IMG/VR virus record: IMGVR_UViG_3300037042_004723
Coordinates: 133,280-197,279 of that record
Reading direction: 5' to 3' (one strand)
From: a virus
Length of the DNA: 64,000 nucleotides
Shown here: piece after piece, positions 9,272-20,788 of the stretch
Numbering within the stretch: the stretch's first letter is position 1
How the letters are laid out: each line of letters starts with the position of its first letter
Notes under the pieces: model-generated
Told to the model about the DNA's origin: nothing
What the model saw: only the letters and a program-made list of their open reading frames with translations
Databases searched by the model: none
Made by a program: the position numbers and the translations under genes

Positions 9272-12200
9272 ATGGGATTTTGGGGACAAGTCGGAGACCG
9301 CGTTCGCGGTTTATTGCGTTTCGATAAAGAGCAGGTAGTCCTTAATCTTGCCAAGGGCGGGTCTGCCTCTGGCTATCCGCAGACTGGGTTTGATCTCCTC
9401 CAGTCGTACGGCCAGGACGTCCTCAGCGACTACCTCAAGCTCGAACATGACCTGATGGCCAGGTTCGTTGACTACGAGGAGATGGACGACTATCCGGAGC
9501 TGGCGTGCCTAGACGGGGACACTCTCGTTTTCACACTGGAATACGGGTGGGAGGCGATCCGTAGCCTCGCCGCGAGAGGTGGAGACTTTCACGTTCTCGC
9601 CTATGACCGTGAGAGCAAGTCCCTGGTTCCGGCGATGGCGCGGAACGCTCGTGCCACGGGTGCGGCTGGGCACAGCAAGCAGATGGTCAGAGTTGTCATG
9701 GACAACGGGCAGGCAATCGTTTGCACGGCTGATCATATGTTCTTCTCCAAGGAGGAGAACTGGATTCAGGCTTCTGGCTTGCGGGCCGGGCAGAGGCTAA
9801 TGCCGGGGGTTCTTCGGTCAAGGAGCCTGAACGGTGACTCGGATGGCTCCTACTGGGAGGTTCACCAGCCGAATAGCGACTCGGTTATCAGAACTTCCGA
9901 TGGGAAGCGCTGGACGTGGGTTCATCGCCTGGTGGGAGAGATGATGCTGGGAGCCGGGCGCGGAGATATCGTCCATCACAAGGATGAGAATTCCCTTAAC
10001 AACGCCCCAGACAATCTGAGCGTGGAAACATACAGCAGCCATGCTGGCGTCCATATCGCCAGGATCAACAATTCATCATATCTGCCTGAATGGAATGACG
10101 AGCGCAAGAGAGCTAAGTCATTGGCGATGCTTGGCAATTCGCATAGAATTGGCAAGCGCGACAGCGCGGAGACTCGCGCTAAAAAGTCGGCGGCTCGTGC
10201 AGGTCGGCCGCTCACGGATGATCATCGCCGAAAAATTGGCGACGCTCACCGGGTTAGCTTTACTCGTGAGCAAGTGGAGTCGGCCTACAGGAGTGGCGGG
10301 TCTGTCGCCGAGGCGGCGAGGATTCTGGGCGTGTCGTGGGGTACGGCTCGCCGGAACCTTGATCGCTATGACCTAATTGTTGACGATGGGAATCACCGCG
10401 TAGTTCGCGTTGAGTTCCTCGATGATCGTCCCGAGATTTTCGATCTTGAGGTTCCTGGCTATCACAACTTTGTCTGCAATGGCGTTGTTGTTCATAATTC
10501 AGCCATCGATATTTATGCCGACGACGCGACGCAAACGGAGTCGCTTCAGAACAAGGTCGTTTGGATCGATAGTCCAGACAAGACCGTTCAGATGATTCTG
10601 GAAGATCTTCTCTGGAAGAGACTTCGCATCGACGAGGAGGTCTGGGAGATCACCCGGACCCTGGTCAAGTACGGCAACGACTACGAGGAGCTTCTCGTAA
10701 CCGGTGACGGTCTGGTTGGCCTCAATTTCCTGCCTCCTCCCACGATGCGTCGAATCGAAGGCCGGCGTGGGGAGTTGTTTGGATTCGTCCAGGACTACAA
10801 GGGGCGCTTCGGATACAGCCCTGAGGAGTTCAAGCAGCTATTGACCCAGCGTGCGGCTGGTGGGAATAGCCCGCAGAACAAGTATGCCGCCCTTGAGGAT
10901 TGGGAGGTCTCCCACTTCAGGCTGAGGTCGAAGCATCGTCGGTCGATCTATGGGTACTCGGTCCTTGAGCCAGCTCGTTGGATCTGGAAGCGCCTTATGC
11001 TTCTTGAGGATGCAGCGATGGTCTATCGACTGCAGCGCGCTCCGCAGCGGTACGCCTTCTATATTGACGTTGGCGATATGCCGCCGAAGGAAGCGATGGG
11101 CTTCCTTCATAAGATGCGTCAGCAGTACAAGAAGACTAAGTTTTACAATCCGCAGTGCCTGACCGGCGAAACCTGCGTGACGTTGCTGGATGGCACCGAC
11201 AAGAGCATGTCGGAGCTTGTTCGCGACTACGCTGACAAGACGTTCGACGTGTTCTCCTACGATTTGGAGACCGGTCGCGTGGTGCCGGGCAAGGCCAGAA
11301 ACCCTCGCCTGACCCATGAGCAGGCGCCGATCTGGCGGGTGGTGTTGGATAACGGTTCCGTCGTGCGCTGCACGGGGAATCACCCGTTCCTGATGAGGGA
11401 CGGTGAGTACAAGGCTGCCAATACGCTCGCGTCCGGCGATTCCCTGATGCCGCTGTACATGTCACGCGGGTCGAAGGGCACGCATGGCTACTGGATGTAT
11501 CAGGAGCCTGGAACCGGCCAGCGCAAGCATGTCCATCGGATGGTCGCGGAGGCTGTATGGCCAGATATGGCTGCGGCGAATATGCAGGTTCATCACGTTG
11601 ATCACAACAAGGCCAATAACGCCCCCGGGAACCTGCAGTGGCTGACCGCGTCCGAGCATGCGCTGCATCATCCTGAGCGCCATCAGGCCGCGCGAGCTGC
11701 CTACGTCAAGCGCGTCAAGAATGATGAGGCGTTCAGGCGCGAAATCGCAGGGCGAATCTCCAACTGGCGCAAGACAAAGCCTGACGAGGCGTTCGCGGCG
11801 ACGTCGAGCCACAGCAAGCAGATCATGGCCGACCGGGTGGCTTCGGCCAAGCCGGCTCACGATGCCATGATGGTCATCATCGAGGGCGAGGTCGTTAGAG
11901 ATCCGCTCGTGGTTATCGAGGAACTCGCCGACCGGCTCAACGCGAACGATGAGTTCGCTAAGCTCTACGCTGACCTTCCAACCACAAAGAATTCGACAAT
12001 CACAGGCGGATGCCTGCACGCATTCTTGCGTCGTCATGGTTTTGACGGCTTCAAGGACTTCAAGAACAAGAAGACCAATCAGGCTCGGTGGAGAAATCGC
12101 ACATACGGCAAGGAGGTCACCGAAGGCACGGAGGCGCACAACCATAAGGTCGTTAGCGTTTCATTCGAAGGATACGAGGACGTCTATAATATGGACGTCG

Positions 12201-14410
12201 AAAAGTATCATAATTTTGCCCTTACAAATGGCGTATTCGTCCATAATACCGGCAAGTTAGATCTCAAGTACAACCCGCTCTCGCAGGACGAGGATTTCTT
12301 CGTTCCCGTGCGCAAGGGTGTCCAGGCGACCAAGATTGACGTCGTGGGCTCGCCATCATGGCAGCACATGGAGGACATCGAATACTTCAAGCTGAAGCTC
12401 TACGCGGCGATCAAAGTTCCCAAGGTCTACCTCGGGTCTGAGGCACCGCGAGCCAAGGGCGTGCTGTGCTTGACTGGCGACACGCAGGTACCGCTGCTTG
12501 ATGGTCGGCAGATTGCGCTCAAAGATCTTGCCGCAGAGCACGGCGCCGACGGCACCTTCTACGTTTACTCCTGTGACAAGGATGGCAACGTTGTGCCCGG
12601 TGAGGCCGTTGGCTGCCAGATGACCAGGCCCGACGCTGAAGTCTGGGAGGTCGAACTGGACGATGGCTCTAAGGTTCGCGGGACGGCAGACCATCCGTTC
12701 TTGATGCGTGATGGGACTTATTGTGAACTTGGGTCCCTCAAGCCAGGCGATTCCCTGATGCCGCTCTACCGCAAGGAGGCAAGTGGCACGGGGCGCGGCG
12801 AGAAGCTGGCCGGATACGAGATGGTCCAGCATCCGTCTACTGGCAACTGGGAGTACACACATCAGGCGGTCAGCCGGGATGCGTGGGGTGATGCCTGGTA
12901 CATGCTCGATGGCAAGCAGGCCGTCTGTCACCATGCCTCATTCGACAAGAGGAATAACGATCCTCGCTCCTTGGTGCGCCTGACCAAGGAAGATCACATC
13001 CTCCTGCACGCAGATCACGCAGAAAAGACCCTGCAGCGTCCAGATGTTGTTGAGGCCAGACGCAAAGGGGTCAAGGCATGGACCGACACCGAGAGGTGTA
13101 AGGACATCGCCAGGGGTAACCTGGCTGCCGTGAAGGCAGATCCGGACTCCGCCTGGTGGGCCTGGCAGCAGTCTGACGAGCATCGCGCCGCCAAGTCATC
13201 ACAGATGACAGTCCAGTGGAGCGACGACTCGTCTCTGATGCGAAGCTCTCATCAGACGGATGAGTTCAGAGAGACGATGAGCGCGGCTGCGTCCAACAAC
13301 TGGGACGATCCAGACTATCGGTCGCAGCGCGAAGGAGCCAATAACTCCAGATGGAGAGGCGACGTCAACCTTCAGCACCTGATTAACATCGCTGATAGTT
13401 ATCGGTGCCGTAATCGGGACGAGCTGATCAAGTGGTCGAAGTGCTCGTGGTCGCTGATTGCCAGGATCTTTCGCGATAACGAGACCTCGTACGCCGAATT
13501 CGCTGCCAAATATATGGTCGGCGGATACAGGCTGTGCGCGAAGGGCGTTGGGCCGGTCATGACTCCGGACATCTTGACCAACAACTTGCCTGCACCCGTT
13601 AATCACTCGGTTGTCGCAGTTCGATTTGTTGGCCGCGAGGATTGCTACGACATCACGGTCAAGCAGCATCACAACTTCGCCGTGGCGGCCGGTGGCGTAA
13701 GCGGTGTTTTTGTTCATAATTCGCAGGAAGACGTACGTTTTGCCAGAACCGTCCTGCGTATCCAGCGTGAAGTGAGGAACGGCATCAAGAAGATGTGCCG
13801 CGTCCACTTGGCTGCTCTCGGCATCAATCCGAGCCAGGTCGACTTCGAGGTCTACATGACGACCCCGAGTTCGATCTTCGAATTGGCTCAGCTAGAGGTC
13901 AGAAATGCGAAGGCGGACTTTGCTGGCCGCATGAGCCAGTTTGTTTCCTTGCACTGGATTCTCCAGAAGGTATTTGGACTTAGCGAGGAAGAGATCGAGT
14001 ACATCATCAAGGAGCGCCATCAGGAGCAACTTGCTGATGCCGAGGTTCAGTCGAAGGCCATGGGCCTCACCGTGGACGTGCAGAATACGGCCGCCCTGAA
14101 GCAGCAGGCTGCGACGACCAGTCTCCAGCAGCAGATGGCAACGGCTCAGCCGAACACGCAGGCATCCGAGGACCTGCGCAAGCACATGCGCGCCTCAGGC
14201 AGCCTGTCTCATATGTGGCCACAAATGAGACAAAACCTTGGCTATCGCCCGATATCCGAACAAGAGCTATTCCACGGCAATCGTGAGCACGAGAAACTTG
14301 TTGGGGACAATCTGGAGAAGATCCTGGAGTCCAATACGTCTTTAGCCAGGAGACTCGCTGAGTTGGGTCAATTGGTTAACGAATTGAAGATGAGCATGCC
14401 TGGTCGCTAG
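9272..14410 (+). CDS. Portal protein (T4 gp20-like) with three inteins (spliced product 599 aa)
   Basis: Exteins rejoin as DYPELA|SAIDIYADDA, RYAFYIDVGDMP...KFYNPQ|TGKLDLKYNPLSQDEDFFVPVR and YFKLKLYAAIKVP...GVL|SQEDVRFAR, matching gp20 motifs. Confidence 0.93.
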   Translation: MGFWGQVGDRVRGLLRFDKEQVVLNLAKGGSASGYPQTGFDLLQSYGQDVLSDYLKLEHDLMARFVDYEEMDDYPELACLDGDTLVFTLEYGWEAIRSLAARGGDFHVLAYDRESKSLVPAMARNARATGAAGHSKQMVRVVMDNGQAIVCTADHMFFSKEENWIQASGLRAGQRLMPGVLRSRSLNGDSDGSYWEVHQPNSDSVIRTSDGKRWTWVHRLVGEMMLGAGRGDIVHHKDENSLNNAPDNLSVETYSSHAGVHIARINNSSYLPEWNDERKRAKSLAMLGNSHRIGKRDSAETRAKKSAARAGRPLTDDHRRKIGDAHRVSFTREQVESAYRSGGSVAEAARILGVSWGTARRNLDRYDLIVDDGNHRVVRVEFLDDRPEIFDLEVPGYHNFVCNGVVVHNSAIDIYADDATQTESLQNKVVWIDSPDKTVQMILEDLLWKRLRIDEEVWEITRTLVKYGNDYEELLVTGDGLVGLNFLPPPTMRRIEGRRGELFGFVQDYKGRFGYSPEEFKQLLTQRAAGGNSPQNKYAALEDWEVSHFRLRSKHRRSIYGYSVLEPARWIWKRLMLLEDAAMVYRLQRAPQRYAFYIDVGDMPPKEAMGFLHKMRQQYKKTKFYNPQCLTGETCVTLLDGTDKSMSELVRDYADKTFDVFSYDLETGRVVPGKARNPRLTHEQAPIWRVVLDNGSVVRCTGNHPFLMRDGEYKAANTLASGDSLMPLYMSRGSKGTHGYWMYQEPGTGQRKHVHRMVAEAVWPDMAAANMQVHHVDHNKANNAPGNLQWLTASEHALHHPERHQAARAAYVKRVKNDEAFRREIAGRISNWRKTKPDEAFAATSSHSKQIMADRVASAKPAHDAMMVIIEGEVVRDPLVVIEELADRLNANDEFAKLYADLPTTKNSTITGGCLHAFLRRHGFDGFKDFKNKKTNQARWRNRTYGKEVTEGTEAHNHKVVSVSFEGYEDVYNMDVEKYHNFALTNGVFVHNTGKLDLKYNPLSQDEDFFVPVRKGVQATKIDVVGSPSWQHMEDIEYFKLKLYAAIKVPKVYLGSEAPRAKGVLCLTGDTQVPLLDGRQIALKDLAAEHGADGTFYVYSCDKDGNVVPGEAVGCQMTRPDAEVWEVELDDGSKVRGTADHPFLMRDGTYCELGSLKPGDSLMPLYRKEASGTGRGEKLAGYEMVQHPSTGNWEYTHQAVSRDAWGDAWYMLDGKQAVCHHASFDKRNNDPRSLVRLTKEDHILLHADHAEKTLQRPDVVEARRKGVKAWTDTERCKDIARGNLAAVKADPDSAWWAWQQSDEHRAAKSSQMTVQWSDDSSLMRSSHQTDEFRETMSAAASNNWDDPDYRSQREGANNSRWRGDVNLQHLINIADSYRCRNRDELIKWSKCSWSLIARIFRDNETSYAEFAAKYMVGGYRLCAKGVGPVMTPDILTNNLPAPVNHSVVAVRFVGREDCYDITVKQHHNFAVAAGGVSGVFVHNSQEDVRFARTVLRIQREVRNGIKKMCRVHLAALGINPSQVDFEVYMTTPSSIFELAQLEVRNAKADFAGRMSQFVSLHWILQKVFGLSEEEIEYIIKERHQEQLADAEVQSKAMGLTVDVQNTAALKQQAATTSLQQQMATAQPNTQASEDLRKHMRASGSLSHMWPQMRQNLGYRPISEQELFHGNREHEKLVGDNLEKILESNTSLARRLAELGQLVNELKMSMPGR
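9506..10498 (+). mobile_element. Portal intein 1 (331 aa, HNH + NUMOD3-like + HTH)
   Basis: CLDGDTLVF...NGVVVHN|S; WVHRLV...VHHKDENSLNNAPDNL; C-terminal SVAEAARILGVS HTH. Confidence 0.92.
11156..12247 (+). mobile_element. Portal intein 2 (364 aa, HNH)
   Basis: CLTGETCV...NGVFVHN|T; HVHRMVAE...VHHVDHNKANNAPGNL. Confidence 0.92.
12467..13720 (+). mobile_element. Portal intein 3 (418 aa, HNH-like)
   Basis: CLTGDTQVP...SGVFVHN|S; YTHQAV...CHHASFDKRNNDPRSL. Confidence 0.92.
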
Positions 14411-15484: not shown

Positions 15485-16507
15485 ATGATTCACAACAGGT
15501 ATCCAGTCCAGCTTACGACCCTCGAAGAGGATTTCCGCGCTATCGGCCTGCTCCCCCAGCGTGAGCTGTCGGAGTCCGACGATTCGGCGGTGCCGCGCGA
15601 TATTCCCTCCCCGGCCCCGGAGACGAATACCGGCAGCGACATGCAGGCGATGCCCGCCCGGCACAAGTACGCCAAGCAGCCGAAGCCAAAGATGGCCCCG
15701 GACGATACCAACGATCATGACGATCCGTTGGAGGCTGGCGCAACTCAGCGCAGGAAGGGCTCCGGCTCGTACAGGACAGTCTCCGGTGGCAAGGAAGCCA
15801 GCCTTGGTCGCATGGAGTCCGCTGAGCCCAAGGGCTATCAGCTACTCAAGAATAAGATCATGAAGGGCGCCAAGGACAACGGCAGGGAGCCGTCTATCGC
15901 CAGAGGCCTTGCCCCCGTCAACAAGCACGCCGGAATGATCAAGAAGGAGTCGGCCAACATCAGCCGCGCTTCTGAGCTTGTGAATGAGGTCGAGGCGCTC
16001 ATCAACGGCTCGCAGGTCAGCGAGGACTATAACAACCTCGCCCACGGGTTCTCGCTCATTGGCGAGAACTGTGCGCTGCTTGCCGATCGCCTGGTCGATC
16101 TCGCCGAGCACTACAACGTGGATCGTGCAATTTCGGCCATGGAGTCTCTCTACAACAACGCCATCGAGGCGGCTCAGATTGTCGAGATGAAGGCCAAGAA
16201 GAAGGACAAGGACGACGATTCGGACGACGATGACGATGATGATTCGGACGCCGACGAGGCGCTTGAGTCCATCAAGGAAGCCTTCCGTCTCATGACCCTT
16301 CAGCTGATGGATGCGGTTGAGGCGTACGACGCCACCATCACCAAGGACGACGATTCGGACGACGACGACGACGACGACGATGACGACGATGATGACGATG
16401 ATGACGACGATGATGACGACGATGACGATGACGATGACGAGGGTGGCATTGCTGCTCGGATGGCTAAGCTGAGGGCAGGTAAGGGCAAGGGCCCTTTCGG
16501 CAAGTAG
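15485..16507 (+). CDS. Prohead-core/scaffold-like protein with poly-Asp tracts (340 aa; possible 415-aa frameshift form ending at 16731)
   Basis: RBS AGGAG upstream; charged low-complexity protein; position just before the protease. Confidence 0.6.
   Translation: MIHNRYPVQLTTLEEDFRAIGLLPQRELSESDDSAVPRDIPSPAPETNTGSDMQAMPARHKYAKQPKPKMAPDDTNDHDDPLEAGATQRRKGSGSYRTVSGGKEASLGRMESAEPKGYQLLKNKIMKGAKDNGREPSIARGLAPVNKHAGMIKKESANISRASELVNEVEALINGSQVSEDYNNLAHGFSLIGENCALLADRLVDLAEHYNVDRAISAMESLYNNAIEAAQIVEMKAKKKDKDDDSDDDDDDDSDADEALESIKEAFRLMTLQLMDAVEAYDATITKDDDSDDDDDDDDDDDDDDDDDDDDDDDDDDDEGGIAARMAKLRAGKGKGPFGK
16346..16438 (+). repeat. (GAC/GAT)n microsatellite encoding DDDS plus 27 consecutive Asp
   Basis: Directly visible; a shorter acidic tract sharing AAGGACGACGATTCGGACGACGA lies at about 16208-16255. 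Confidence 0.95.
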
Positions 16508-16580
16508 GGCTCCAGACCGAGGAGCCCAGGGCTAGGCGAACGGCCTACGCATCGGGACGCAAGGAATTGGCATTCGGTCT
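16492..16580 (+). other. Candidate -1 ribosomal frameshift element (slippery heptamer + pseudoknot)
   Basis: C CCT TTC in frame; stem GGGCTCC/GGAGCCC (16507-13/16521-27); loop AGACCGA complementary to TCGGTCT (16574-80); -1 frame open to TAA 16729-31. Confidence 0.7.
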
Positions 16581-16730
16581 AGAGCCACGTGACGGCCCAA
16601 TGGGCAAATCAACAAGGAGTCCAAAGCGGAGAAAAAGCAGTTCAGATCTATCGCTTTGTTACGATGTGAGTTTCAAGTCGCCCGTAATTAAAAGATCTGA
16701 ATTCAGTTTCCCATTTTGGTCAAAAGGCTA

Positions 16731-18329
16731 ATGTCCAACGAAAAACAACTACTTGTTGACACGTTTTCCTTCAGGGCTACCGTCCTGGAGGAAAGCAAGT
16801 CAGGTCCCGGCGAGTACATCGCCAAGGGCGAGTTTGCTCGTTCGGATAGACCAACCGAGAACAAGCGACTATATCCAGCGACCCTCTGGGAGCGCGAGAT
16901 CGGACGCCTGTCTAAGCAGATGAAGGAAATGAAGGTCTACGGCGAGCTGGATCATCCGATGGATGGTCGGACGCAGCTCAAGCGCGTATCCCACATTATT
17001 TCCGACCTCCACATGGAGGGCAACATTGTCGTCGGTACGGCTCGCATCCTCAACACGACTGAGGGCAGAAACCTCAAGGCAATCATTGAGGCAGGCGGAG
17101 CAGTTGGTGTTTCGTCTCGTGGATTTGGTACTACCAAGCCAAACCTTCAGGGAGAAGAGGTTGTTCAGCCGGATTATCGGTTGATGACTTTCGATTTTGT
17201 CGCTGAGCCAGCGCAGCAGAGCGCCTATCCGAAAATTAGCATCGAGAGCACTAATGCTCATCGAAAGATGGAGGCAGCAATGGATGAGAGTATGACATTT
17301 AATGAGTTCAAGAGGACTCATCCTGAGCTGGCCGAGCACTTTGCTGACGACGCTCAGCGTGAGTACGAGAAGCGTGGCGCTGAGATTTGGGCCAAGAAGA
17401 TTCTTGGCACCAAAACTGAGGTCGCCACGAATCTCCGTGCCGAGTTCGCCGAGAAGCTTGAGGCGGCCGTCGCTGAGGCCAAGAAGGAGATGGAGAAGTC
17501 CGTCACCGAGCGCCTCATGAATGACCCCTCGGTTGCCCTTGCCAAGAAGGCGATGAGCGAGCTGAAGGACGTCCTTCGTCCGTTCGTTATTCCTTCCGAC
17601 GTGGAGTCGGTCGTCAGGTCAAAGGAAGAGGTCATCGGCCAGCTTGAGAACAAGCTGGCGGAGAAGGATCTCGAAATTGCTAACCTGATCAGCGAGAATG
17701 ACAAGCTTGCGAAGATCGCCAAGGAAGCTGGCTACAGGTATCACCTGGAGCAGCGCCTGAACGATATCGGTAACGCGGACGAGATCCGCTCTCTGGTTGG
17801 TGATGTGAAGCGGTACAGGACCCTAAGGGATATGGACAAGCAGATCGTTCAGATCGCTGAGTCCATCGCCCTCAGAGATACTGAGGAGTCGAGGCGCGAT
17901 GAGCGCGTCGCTCAACTTGAGGAAGAGGTTGCCACGCAGAAGCTGATCGCCGAGAAGGCGCTTGAGGCTAGCAAGCACCTCGCTGCCCAGGTCTACCTGG
18001 AGCAGCGCCTCGCAAATCACCCCAATCAGGAGTACGCGCGTACTCTCACTGAGTCTCGTCAGCCCGCGACCAAGGAACAGGTCGATGCGCTGATGGCGAA
18101 GTCACTGCCCCGGGTATCCGTTACTGAGGATATCGAAGCAGCTCGGGCCCGCGTTCGTCAGTTGACGAACAGCGGTACTCGTGAGTATCTGCAGGAGCAG
18201 GAAGAGGGCAAGGGATCTATGGGTGGTAACCATGATGGTGCCACTCGCGATTACAACGGGCTCGGAGCGAATCTCAACGAGATCCGTGCCCTATCGGGGC
18301 TGCCAGGCAAGGGCACTCAGAGCAACTAA
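16731..18329 (+). CDS. Prohead protease (T4 gp21-like) fused to a coiled-coil scaffold domain
   Basis: NKRLYP, YGELDHP, VSHII, VGVSSRGFG, FDFVAEPA motifs; long C-terminal helical region; ATG 16731 preferred over TTG 16716. Confidence 0.92.
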   Translation: MSNEKQLLVDTFSFRATVLEESKSGPGEYIAKGEFARSDRPTENKRLYPATLWEREIGRLSKQMKEMKVYGELDHPMDGRTQLKRVSHIISDLHMEGNIVVGTARILNTTEGRNLKAIIEAGGAVGVSSRGFGTTKPNLQGEEVVQPDYRLMTFDFVAEPAQQSAYPKISIESTNAHRKMEAAMDESMTFNEFKRTHPELAEHFADDAQREYEKRGAEIWAKKILGTKTEVATNLRAEFAEKLEAAVAEAKKEMEKSVTERLMNDPSVALAKKAMSELKDVLRPFVIPSDVESVVRSKEEVIGQLENKLAEKDLEIANLISENDKLAKIAKEAGYRYHLEQRLNDIGNADEIRSLVGDVKRYRTLRDMDKQIVQIAESIALRDTEESRRDERVAQLEEEVATQKLIAEKALEASKHLAAQVYLEQRLANHPNQEYARTLTESRQPATKEQVDALMAKSLPRVSVTEDIEAARARVRQLTNSGTREYLQEQEEGKGSMGGNHDGATRDYNGLGANLNEIRALSGLPGKGTQSN

Positions 18330-18347: not shown

Positions 18348-19829
18348 ATGGAAGCGAGACAGCTAATGTTGACTGAGTCCAAGCGGTCCATCGCCGACAA
18401 GGGGTTTATCCAATCCCTTATCGGTAAGTGGGGCGAGCTGCTTGAGGGGATCGAAAATCCCTACACTCGTGGTGTCACTGCGATGCTCATGGAAAATGAG
18501 TCGCAGTGGCTTCAGAACCTGGAAGAGGAGACCAAGACGATCAACGTCGGTTCCTTTACCAAGTTCATCTTTCCGGTTCTCCGGAGGGTGTTCCCGAACC
18601 TGATTGCCAACGAGATTGTGTCGGTTCAGCCGATGACAGCCCCGATTGGCGCAGTTTTCTTCTTCGACTACAAGTACGGGTCCAACAAGGGCTCGACTCA
18701 GGCTGGCGCGGTGTTCCCGCGCGACTTCGACAGGGACTACTCTTCGGAGTTCGTCCGTGACGAGCAGCTTGCGGTTGGTGACGGCGCCTCCTTTGGCGGT
18801 GTTGGTGCGGCGCTTGCGGCGGTCATGTCGTGGACCCCGGTTCGCCCGTTGAACGCAGCCCTGGGCTTCTCGGTCCAGATCATCGAAGTCAATGCGGCCA
18901 CTGGCACGGTCATTCAGACCGGTACGGACAACGGCACTGGTGGCTTCACCGGCGCGGTTACCGCTGGCGCCATCAACTACGGCTCGGGCGCGGTTACCGC
19001 GTTTAAGTTCACGGTTGCTCCGCTGATCACCAGCAAGATCGTCGCTCGTTACTTCTATGACGGCGAGCTGAACACCAAGATTCCCCAGGTCAACCTGGAC
19101 ATCACCAAGCAGCCCATCGAAGCGATTCCGCGTCGCCTCAAGGCTCTTTGGTCGTCTGAGGCGGCCGAGGATCTCCGTGCATTCCACGGCCTCGATGCGG
19201 AGACCGAGCTGGTTTCCGGTATCGCTCAGGAGATCGCTCTTGAGATCGACCGTGAGATCATCAACGACCTGTTCGTGACCTCGGCGTCGGGTCGTACTGA
19301 CACCTTCTCGCTTACGCCGCCCGCCGGCATCAGCGAGATCGACCACCTTCGGTCGATGATCACGAAGATCAGCTCGATCTCGAACTTCATCCACAAGGAC
19401 ACTCTCCGGGCTCCGGCGAACTTCCTTGTGACGTCGCCCGAGATCTCGGCTCGTCTGTCGCAGCTGACCACGCACGGCGACTTCCGGCCCCTTTGGGTGT
19501 CGGGTGGCGCGAGCCCGTACGGCCCGGCTGATATGCCGCGCCCGCTGACTCAGCATGGCCAGTTCGGTATCTACAAGGTCGGCACCCTGATGAACAAGTG
19601 GGTCGTCTATGAGGATCCCTTCTTCGACAGCGACAAGATGCTCATCGGCCTCAAGGGCGCGAGCTTCCTGGATGCCGGCTACGTGTGGGCGCCGTACATC
19701 CCGCTGCAGGTCACCCCGACGTTCCTCGATCCGGCTGACTTCTCGTTCCGTAAGGGCCTGAGGACCCGCTACGGAAAGAAGGTCCTTAGATCCGAATATT
19801 ACGGTAGGATCACCTTCACTGGCCTGTAA
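18348..19829 (+). CDS. Major capsid protein (T4 gp23-like) with an inserted beta-domain
   Basis: LRRVFPNLIANEIVSVQPMTAPIGAVF, RRLKALWSSEAAEDL, LEIDREII, YVWAPYIPL, GLRTRYG; strong RBS. Confidence 0.96.
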   Translation: MEARQLMLTESKRSIADKGFIQSLIGKWGELLEGIENPYTRGVTAMLMENESQWLQNLEEETKTINVGSFTKFIFPVLRRVFPNLIANEIVSVQPMTAPIGAVFFFDYKYGSNKGSTQAGAVFPRDFDRDYSSEFVRDEQLAVGDGASFGGVGAALAAVMSWTPVRPLNAALGFSVQIIEVNAATGTVIQTGTDNGTGGFTGAVTAGAINYGSGAVTAFKFTVAPLITSKIVARYFYDGELNTKIPQVNLDITKQPIEAIPRRLKALWSSEAAEDLRAFHGLDAETELVSGIAQEIALEIDREIINDLFVTSASGRTDTFSLTPPAGISEIDHLRSMITKISSISNFIHKDTLRAPANFLVTSPEISARLSQLTTHGDFRPLWVSGGASPYGPADMPRPLTQHGQFGIYKVGTLMNKWVVYEDPFFDSDKMLIGLKGASFLDAGYVWAPYIPLQVTPTFLDPADFSFRKGLRTRYGKKVLRSEYYGRITFTGL

Positions 19830-19927: not shown

Positions 19928-20788
19928 ATGACCAAGGATGTTAAGTTTGATCTTCTGGATGGATGGTCACAGGAGAAGGCTTGGTGGTTGGGAGCTACTT
20001 ACGGTGACGGCAATATCTATGGACGAAGCGACAAAGGGGCATACCGGGTTTCCATTGTTTGCAATCTCAGCACAGTTCAGCAATGGACGGCCCTGATCTG
20101 CCCAGACGCCGGTATTGAGCAGAGGACGCCAAATGCCTGGGAGGGTTATATCTACTCAAAGCGCCTGGTTGAGTGGTTTGCTGCCCGTGATCTGGTAGGC
20201 AAGAAATCGCATCGACTGGTGTGGCCAGAAGATCTTCCGGCTCAGTTCTATCCAGACTTCTTGCGTGGCCTTTGGGACACAGACGGAAGCGTCAAGATCG
20301 AGAAGCGGCGCCTTAAGCAAGGCAACGACACTCTGCGAGCCATGTTTTGCGCTCAGAACGAGAGCTTCGCGCAGCGAGTTCAGGATGAGGTTGTTGCTGG
20401 GTCGAAGGTCCAGCCTGGGAAGTTGATTCGTCAGGAGAAGATCTTGTCCGGCAAGTCCCATAGCTGGAGCACCTTCAAGCATACCGGCGCCCCAGCCGTC
20501 CTGGTCTGCGACTACCTCTACGGCGATGCGCCGGCTCACATCCGTGGCGAGAGCCGGTATCAGGTCTATCGGGACTACGTTGATTCGCGTCCAGAAGGCT
20601 CATGCCGATGTGGTGGCGAGGCCTGGACTGAGGCAATGTGTCGCACCTGTTGGTGGACCAAGCGTCGGGTCGACACTCCTAAGAAGATTTGCCAATGCGG
20701 GCGCGATGTTGTCGCTAAGGGCATGTGCCTGAACTGCTATAAGCGAGCGGCGCGCAAGCATGATAGTGTCATCACGTCTGGTTCTTGA
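19928..20788 (+). CDS. Free-standing LAGLIDADG homing endonuclease with Cys-rich tail
   Basis: WWLGATYGDG and FLRGLWDTDG helices; C-terminal CxC...CxxC repeats. Confidence 0.85.
   Translation: MTKDVKFDLLDGWSQEKAWWLGATYGDGNIYGRSDKGAYRVSIVCNLSTVQQWTALICPDAGIEQRTPNAWEGYIYSKRLVEWFAARDLVGKKSHRLVWPEDLPAQFYPDFLRGLWDTDGSVKIEKRRLKQGNDTLRAMFCAQNESFAQRVQDEVVAGSKVQPGKLIRQEKILSGKSHSWSTFKHTGAPAVLVCDYLYGDAPAHIRGESRYQVYRDYVDSRPEGSCRCGGEAWTEAMCRTCWWTKRRVDTPKKICQCGRDVVAKGMCLNCYKRAARKHDSVITSGS

Follow-up and report, generated by a model that had tools for sequence, protein, structure and literature searches.

The window analysed here, 64,000 nucleotides of the IMG/VR virus record IMGVR_UViG_3300037042_004723 (positions 133,280 to 197,279), constitutes the final 64 kb of a 197-kb single-contig genome, and the region under study is the head module of an uncultured T4-like phage. 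This report concerns an acidic gene between the portal and the prohead protease genes, the 3' end of which carries a candidate site for programmed -1 ribosomal frameshifting and is followed by an apparent gap. The elements of the locus, in window coordinates, are:

15485-16507, plus strand: acidic head-module gene, 0 frame; short product of 340 amino acids (aa), isoelectric point (pI) 4.3
16492-16498, plus strand: slippery heptamer C CCU UUC (X XXY YYZ, in 0-frame phase)
16499-16507, plus strand: spacer GGCAAGTA (8 nt, 16499-16506) and 0-frame stop TAG (16505-07)
16498-16731, plus strand: -1 frame extension, 77 codons and TAA, basic
16507-16527, plus strand: hairpin of a GC-rich 7-bp stem closed by a 7-nt loop, separated from the heptamer by 8 nt, candidate stimulator
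16573-16586, plus strand: distal complement of the hairpin's 5' arm and loop (A2 columns 82-89 and 91-95)
Between the acidic open reading frame (ORF) and the protease: apparent gap of 223 nt
16729-16733, plus strand: TAATG, the extension stop overlapping the protease start by one base (last A of TAA, ATG at 16731)
16731-18329, plus strand: gp21-like prohead protease, 532 aa, with a long C-terminal coiled-coil (scaffold-like) part

The acidic ORF terminates with the 0-frame codons GGC CCT TTC GGC AAG TAG. A first-pass annotation of this DNA had proposed a frameshift at the in-phase heptamer C CCT TTC (16492-98) ahead of the TAG, and the sequence confirms both this motif and the open -1 frame that was said to meet the protease ATG in TAATG. 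The -1 frame contains a TAA at 16480-82, is open from 16483 and terminates at TAA 16729-31, and its opening precedes the TAG by only 25 nt (22 nt in the relatives L001, L002 and L027). The predicted products comprise 340 aa and 338 + 77 = 415 aa, and the pI of 10.5 for the tail alone bears out the earlier contrast between a basic extension and a short form with a run of 27 Asp residues. Neither ATG nor GTG nor TTG occurs in the -1 frame between 16483 and 16566; the first start codon is found at 16567 (60 nt past the TAG), and the peptide is conserved from its first codons (1-23), i.e. from at least 20 codons ahead of this position. Three relatives (L002, L009 and L011) lack a start codon anywhere in the -1 frame. 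In-phase heptamers with Y = A/T occupy 7 of 11,448 codon positions in the large genes of the window, and the chance of finding one within the 25-nt overlap is therefore about 0.5%. The H_HH.U_UU.Y motif class ranks among the most efficient -1 motifs in Escherichia coli (Sharma et al., PMC4066793), which makes C CCU UUC a credible bacterial site. Another heptamer in phase, G GGC CCT (16489-95), was discarded as the slippage site, being absent from several near relatives including L001, L002, L027 and L048. Transcriptional slippage was ruled out by the lack of a homopolymer run, and readthrough of the TAG by the conservation of the -1 instead of the 0 frame.

The DNA of relatives was collected by alignment-based scans of IMG/VR and JGI contigs together with look-ups of encoding contigs; unlike these, a scan of IMG/VR with a single sequence gave no match. 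In all near relatives (46-80% identity) the acidic gene ends with NNC CCT TTN GGN NNN TAG. The residue preceding the proline differs between them (G, N, V, S or R) and its codon always ends in C, and the proline is invariably encoded by CCT, the codon for 18% of the prolines in the window. The -1 frame is open for 72-80 codons in every near relative and encodes a recognisably conserved peptide. Its coding capacity was assessed in 12 near relatives with a nucleotide-level alignment, which hence favours no frame. Across 16498-16728 the three codon positions of the -1 frame diverge between pairs of relatives by 0.237/0.164/0.510 on average, compared with 0.257/0.180/0.499 in the core gene and 0.138/0.089/0.401 in the protease. 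This pattern is present in every 45-nt block, and the apparent gap is therefore very probably translated in the -1 frame over its whole length. Within the heptamer all three wobble positions (3/3) are invariant in the 12 relatives, versus 2 of 73 (2.7%) in the last 220 nt of the core gene; two of the three lie upstream of the shift, and dual coding therefore cannot explain their invariance. The adjacent stretch 16499-16507, in contrast, is nearly invariant because it is read in both frames. Two relatives (L011 and L015) carry the canonical G GGA AAC at the equivalent place, and L052 has G GGA AAG directly before a TAA. The acidic gene of L051 (2440-2530) exhibits an extra frame break about 40 nt before its normal C CCT TTC site, representing either an assembly error or a second shift.

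A profile built from 25 tails and compared with 1.84 billion protein representatives retrieved only 15 matches, all of them ORFs of 55-79 aa and none an in-frame fusion. The alignment including these 15 matches recovered 80 further IMG/VR loci. A large ORF precedes the peptide in 76 of the 81 distinct loci, the counts of which are not phylogenetically independent, and in 68 the peptide occupies the -1 frame relative to this ORF. The last 45 nt of the upstream ORF contain an X XXY YYZ heptamer in phase in 49 of the 76 loci, compared with 5 and 3 in the other two phases. These 49 heptamers comprise GGGAAAC (24), CCCTTTC (14), GGGAAAA (5), GGGAAAG (2) and single cases of CCCTTTG, AAAAAAC, AAAAAAA and AAAAAAG, and they are usually located 0-2 codons ahead of the stop. 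Wherever a locus extends to the gene after the peptide, this gene is the protease (71/71). Judged by these alignments, the tail is a member of a family of small basic peptides, the coding sequence of which is always located between those of the acidic protein and the protease in a large uncultured clade of T4-like phages. The earlier expectation that relatives would keep the heptamer and an open -1 frame is thus borne out by all near relatives, and the layout is retained in about 80 loci. At the level of comparative sequence, selection on the heptamer, the coding nature of the -1 frame, the lack of a start codon of its own and the conservation of the layout are all shown.

The RNA elements described in the first-pass annotation exist as letters in the window, namely the 8-nt spacer, the stem GGGCTCC (16507-13)/GGAGCCC (16521-27) with its loop AGACCGA (16514-20), the loop complement TCGGTCT (16574-80) and the pair TAGGC (16533-37)/GCCTA (16543-47). 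The hairpin 16507-27 has a free energy of -15.1 kcal/mol and belongs to the lowest 2-3% of 36-nt windows in the surrounding sequence. Its pairs are kept in 81% of cells in 15 near relatives, by sequence conservation and with no compensatory change, and unrelated stems occupy the hairpin position in L006, L011 and L028. In the 49 heptamer loci, the 36-nt segment that begins 5 nt after the heptamer has a more stable fold than its locus background (median percentile 0.16); the lowest decile includes 39% of these non-independent loci. In our reading a downstream hairpin would represent a frequent, not obligatory helper. The minimum-energy fold of 16499-16600 (z = -1.88) contains a nested 13-bp long-range helix of 16508-21 with 16573-86, which is 79.6% kept in relatives without covariation. 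The distal segment 16573-86 is a candidate element, either as the partner in a proposed pseudoknot or as the 3' arm of this nested helix. RNAalifold detected no notable consensus structure (-3.35 kcal/mol, with the heptamer itself paired), and Rfam returned only a sub-threshold match to astro_FSE (14 bits versus a gathering score of 70, E = 0.57), which corresponds to chance.

The locus is best explained by programmed -1 ribosomal frameshifting at C CCU UUC in the acidic gene, to which we assign a probability of roughly 0.86. A fraction of the ribosomes would pause with tRNA-Pro on CCU and tRNA-Phe on UUC (16493-98), and both tRNAs would slip back by one base, from CCU to CCC and from UUC to UUU. 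The ribosomes would then bypass the TAG and translate 77 codons in the -1 frame before the TAA at 16729-31. The outcome would be a major acidic protein of 340 aa and a minor form of 415 aa with a basic tail, and this tail may tether a constant proportion of the acidic protein to some prohead partner. Ribosomes that end at TAATG may in addition feed the translation of the protease. The two products had been postulated before, and the coding -1 frame, the invariant wobble positions, the lack of a start codon and about 80 relatives with varied heptamers support this postulate; that slippage occurs, how often it does so and that the hairpin 16507-27 contributes to it is what we infer.

Several observations weigh against this interpretation, beginning with the phylogenetic dependence of the family-wide counts mentioned above. 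The hairpin reaches only z = -1.63 relative to dinucleotide shuffles, 13 of 200 of which fold as well, and the local stem is absent in L030, L054, L045, L007/8/32 and L052. About one quarter of the family members with a -1 layout have no canonical heptamer; five loci (L009, L012, L016, L065 and L107) carry C CCT ACC or C CCT ATC in the last 20 nt of the acidic gene, where a slip of the P-site tRNA only, on C CCU, may take place. In seven loci the peptide is encoded by a separate ORF, which starts in an ATGA overlap in L118, in a GTGA overlap in L079, with a GTG just after the upstream stop in L132 and L134, and with its own ATG in L103, L122 and L131; their junctions are located about 75 nt before the peptide core. 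These lineages document that the peptide can work unfused and that the family switches between fused and free expression. In a distant clade (L014, L043, L055 and L056; e.g. L056:3786-3977) the peptide is found in the +1 frame. The acidic protein of this clade has a length of 400-440 aa, the overlap contains UUU C (often as CCC TTT CGN), and no start codon is nearby, so that the motif in mirrored form may serve for a +1 shift here.

The stand-alone homologues are also the main argument for regarding the 77-codon frame as a separate small gene that is translated by reinitiation after the TAG (16505-07) or from a non-canonical start, without any fusion. However, codons 1-23 are conserved although the -1 frame offers no ATG, GTG or TTG from 16483 to 16566, and a separate gene would leave the invariant wobble bases of the heptamer, the 49 : 5 : 3 phase bias and the replacement of one canonical heptamer by another unexplained, which makes this scenario very improbable. 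Chance or artefact, i.e. an open alternative frame in GC-rich DNA combined with a fortuitous heptamer or an indel in the assembly, gains some credit from the commonness of long alternative-frame ORFs in the window. Yet the frame bears a coding signature, more than 80 independent assemblies share the frame relation, the GC content falls to 38-42% in the tail, and no promoter, terminator or Rfam family was found in the 223-nt gap; the comparative data thus effectively refute it.

A further proposal, that of the first-pass annotation, accepts the frameshift and attributes it to an H-type pseudoknot formed by pairing of the loop 16514-20 with 16574-80, the small TAGGC/GCCTA hairpin being situated between the two. 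The 7-nt complement is exact in the window, 74% of the cells across 15 relatives are pairable, and two sequences show a change on both sides of the pairing at one position. Pairing level and covariation nevertheless equal those of shuffled controls, and no measure of covariation in any of the stems exceeds them. Only 37% of the cells of the inner hairpin are paired, and more distant relatives have unrelated or no local structure. The same bases take part in the nested 13-bp helix, which is equally conserved and which the minimum-energy structure uses in place of the pseudoknot. With all seven loop nucleotides paired the linkers would have zero length on both sides, a configuration disallowed by established pseudoknot geometry. 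A pseudoknot-driven shift is accordingly improbable, and neither the pseudoknot nor the inner hairpin is supported by the comparison.

The junction with the protease is a recurrent feature of the family. Of 75 loci, 31 have a tail stop that overlaps the protease ATG by one base and 48 have it within -3 to +4 nt; the abutment noticed in the window holds in most relatives. The Shine-Dalgarno pairing of the protease gene is weak in the window (-3.2 versus -7.4 kcal/mol for the core gene and -9.5 kcal/mol for the capsid gene), and the family means show the same order (-5.75 versus -7.67 and -8.02 kcal/mol; paired p ~1e-5, not phylogenetically corrected). This weakness fits translational coupling, and equally a need for low expression or a constraint from overlapping coding. 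Coupling of the tail to the protease is plausible. The weak Shine-Dalgarno site is the one hint in favour of the earlier proposal that the frameshift rate may set the protease:core ratio. A bolder scenario, which we regard as rather unlikely, is that the slippage rate acts as a stoichiometry gate of head maturation across a large uncultured T4-like clade, similar to retroviral gag-pro. Slipped ribosomes alone would then arrive at TAATG, where they would reinitiate on the protease gene with its weak initiation site, so that one slippage rate would fix the ratio of acidic core protein, basic-tailed core protein and protease; lineages would retune this ratio by swapping -1 slippage, +1 slippage and a separate coupled ORF.

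The tail peptide, which is conserved in 82 sequences, has a core block, R-x-RRTAY-x-SGR-x-E, and a second conserved, aromatic-basic block at its C-terminus. Its drop in GC content is the one expected of Lys-, Ser- and Phe-rich coding. Comparisons with Pfam, PHROG, NCBIfam and ESM Atlas features yielded no meaningful match, and the tail showed no resemblance to gp67, gp68 or gp22 from a T4-type phage. An AlphaFold2 model based on 82 sequences exhibits almost no secondary structure (predicted local distance difference test 59, predicted template modelling score 0.14), so that the tail looks like a linear-motif peptide that would be disordered when alone. A complex prediction of the tail with the N-terminal domain of the protease gave 'no answer' with a score of 0.00, which carries no weight either way. 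The motif L/I/V/M-x-E, the consensus of the T4 protease, directly precedes the peptide core in 33 of 81 relatives, and the window has Q-T-E at this place (16513-16521); the tail may be cut off after assembly.

The Asp run of the acidic protein spans residues 292-318. A protein search with the acidic ORF identified 37 metagenome homologues, none of which has a Pfam domain, and nothing meaningful was retrieved from Pfam, PHROG or NCBIfam. Its earlier label as a prohead-core gene is supported by gene order and composition, the gene being located between portal (gene 20) and protease (gene 21) as are T4 gp67 and gp68, but not by profile comparison, as hhalign against gp67, gp68 and gp22 of the T4-type phage Acj61 returned probabilities of 0.1-1%, i.e. 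no detectable homology. The N-terminus (15485-15530) harbors a near-invariant L-T-T-L-E-E-D-F block, the L-E-E of which resembles a gp21 cleavage site as in the leaders of T4 core proteins. The assignment of the downstream gene to the gp21-like proteases is upheld by matches to Pfam Peptidase_S77 (3.6e-18) and phrog_207 (1.7e-48).

The order portal, 319-aa ORF, acidic ORF, protease and gp23 is common to the window and its relatives. The neighbouring genes are:

9272-14410: portal gene, intein-interrupted; ORF of 1712 aa
14492-15451: 319-aa ORF between the portal and the acidic gene
18348-19829: gp23-type capsid gene (2e-69)

The portal ORF contains three large insertions, each ending in His-Asn and with HNH-like motifs, which identify them as inteins. 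The position of the 319-aa ORF is kept in all relatives that reach that far (309-338 aa there), and Pfam, PHROG and NCBIfam assigned it to no family. A free-standing ORF for a LAGLIDADG-type endonuclease (19928-20788; Pfam LAGLIDADG_3 1e-4, phrog_4645 2.8e-11) is located directly 3' of the major capsid gene. DNA and protein searches of the INPHARED phage collection recovered neither the locus nor a homologue of the acidic protein, the tail or its stand-alone version; the collection contains no cultured relative.

Conserved recoding in phage morphogenesis is textbook knowledge for the tail assembly proteins G/GT, and scattered cases exist among capsid proteins. The locus described here works like G/GT in that ribosomes slipping by -1 at an X XXY YYZ heptamer, close to where a morphogenesis gene ends, would generate a minor, C-terminally extended isoform at a fixed ratio, and in that the position is kept across very diverged phages with varying heptamers and an occasional other frame offset. 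It is not a member of that system. It belongs to the head module and the interval between portal and protease, not to that between the major tail gene and the tape measure, and shares no sequence relation; its basic tail of 55-80 aa, predicted to be disordered when alone, is a separate gene in some lineages. The frameshift of the lambda G/GT tail assembly chaperone is conserved in tailed phages (Levin 1993; Xu, Hendrix and Duda 2004; both as cited in PMC5009743). Head genes are likewise known to be subject to -1 frameshifts, as documented for gene 10A/10B of T7/T3 and the major head protein of the Lactobacillus phage A2 (cited in PMC5221750 and PMC10885494). These shifts also occur near the end of a head gene and lead to a longer second form, and the signal of phage A2 consists of a heptamer and a stem-loop; they extend the major capsid protein, however, whereas the locus studied concerns an acidic non-capsid protein upstream of the protease and is family-wide.

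The bacterial paradigm of -1 frameshifting, the tau/gamma products of E. coli dnaX, relies on a heptamer with a stem-loop downstream of it, possibly a Shine-Dalgarno-like element upstream, and a stop close by. Our locus resembles this arrangement, with the hairpin as a candidate counterpart of the stem-loop, but the dnaX shift truncates its product instead of extending it and uses A AAA AAG in place of C CCU UUC. The acidic gene resembles T4 gp67/gp68 (and gp22) in its position between genes 20 and 21, its acidic composition and its N-terminal L-E-E, in contrast to the lack of homology detectable by hhalign; T4 is not known to use a frameshift. The retroviral gag-pro/gag-pol genes provide a parallel in another respect, as their frameshift is located at the end of an abundant structural gene immediately upstream of the protease gene, and by analogy to gag-pro slippage could set a low, protease-linked stoichiometry. 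Unlike the retroviral case, the protease is not fused and the extension stops at TAATG, so that any link would depend on termination and reinitiation.

A search of the literature for frameshifting linked to the prohead, a scaffold, gp67/68 or the prohead protease retrieved no account of such a case, in agreement with the earlier statement that no recoding is known in T4-like head assembly. The frameshifted phage genes of the PRFect paper include capsid genes, yet no scaffold or prohead gene, and the terms scaffold, prohead and head assembly do not occur in the available text of the Atkins 2016 review. The locus thus represents a known textbook mechanism in a new gene context.

The present analysis adds a probable second family-wide frameshift to phage morphogenesis, placed in the head-core/protease module of T4-like phages and based on some 80 diverged genomes from metagenomes. 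The extension is either overlooked by gene callers or reduced to a truncated small ORF, so that the annotation of such genomes needs correcting. With its +1 clade, its stand-alone versions and at least three types of heptamer, the family provides a natural variant series for the evolution of frameshift sites. For the phages themselves, the predicted minor basic-tailed isoform of an extremely acidic core protein may organise the interior of the prohead or limit the supply of the protease.

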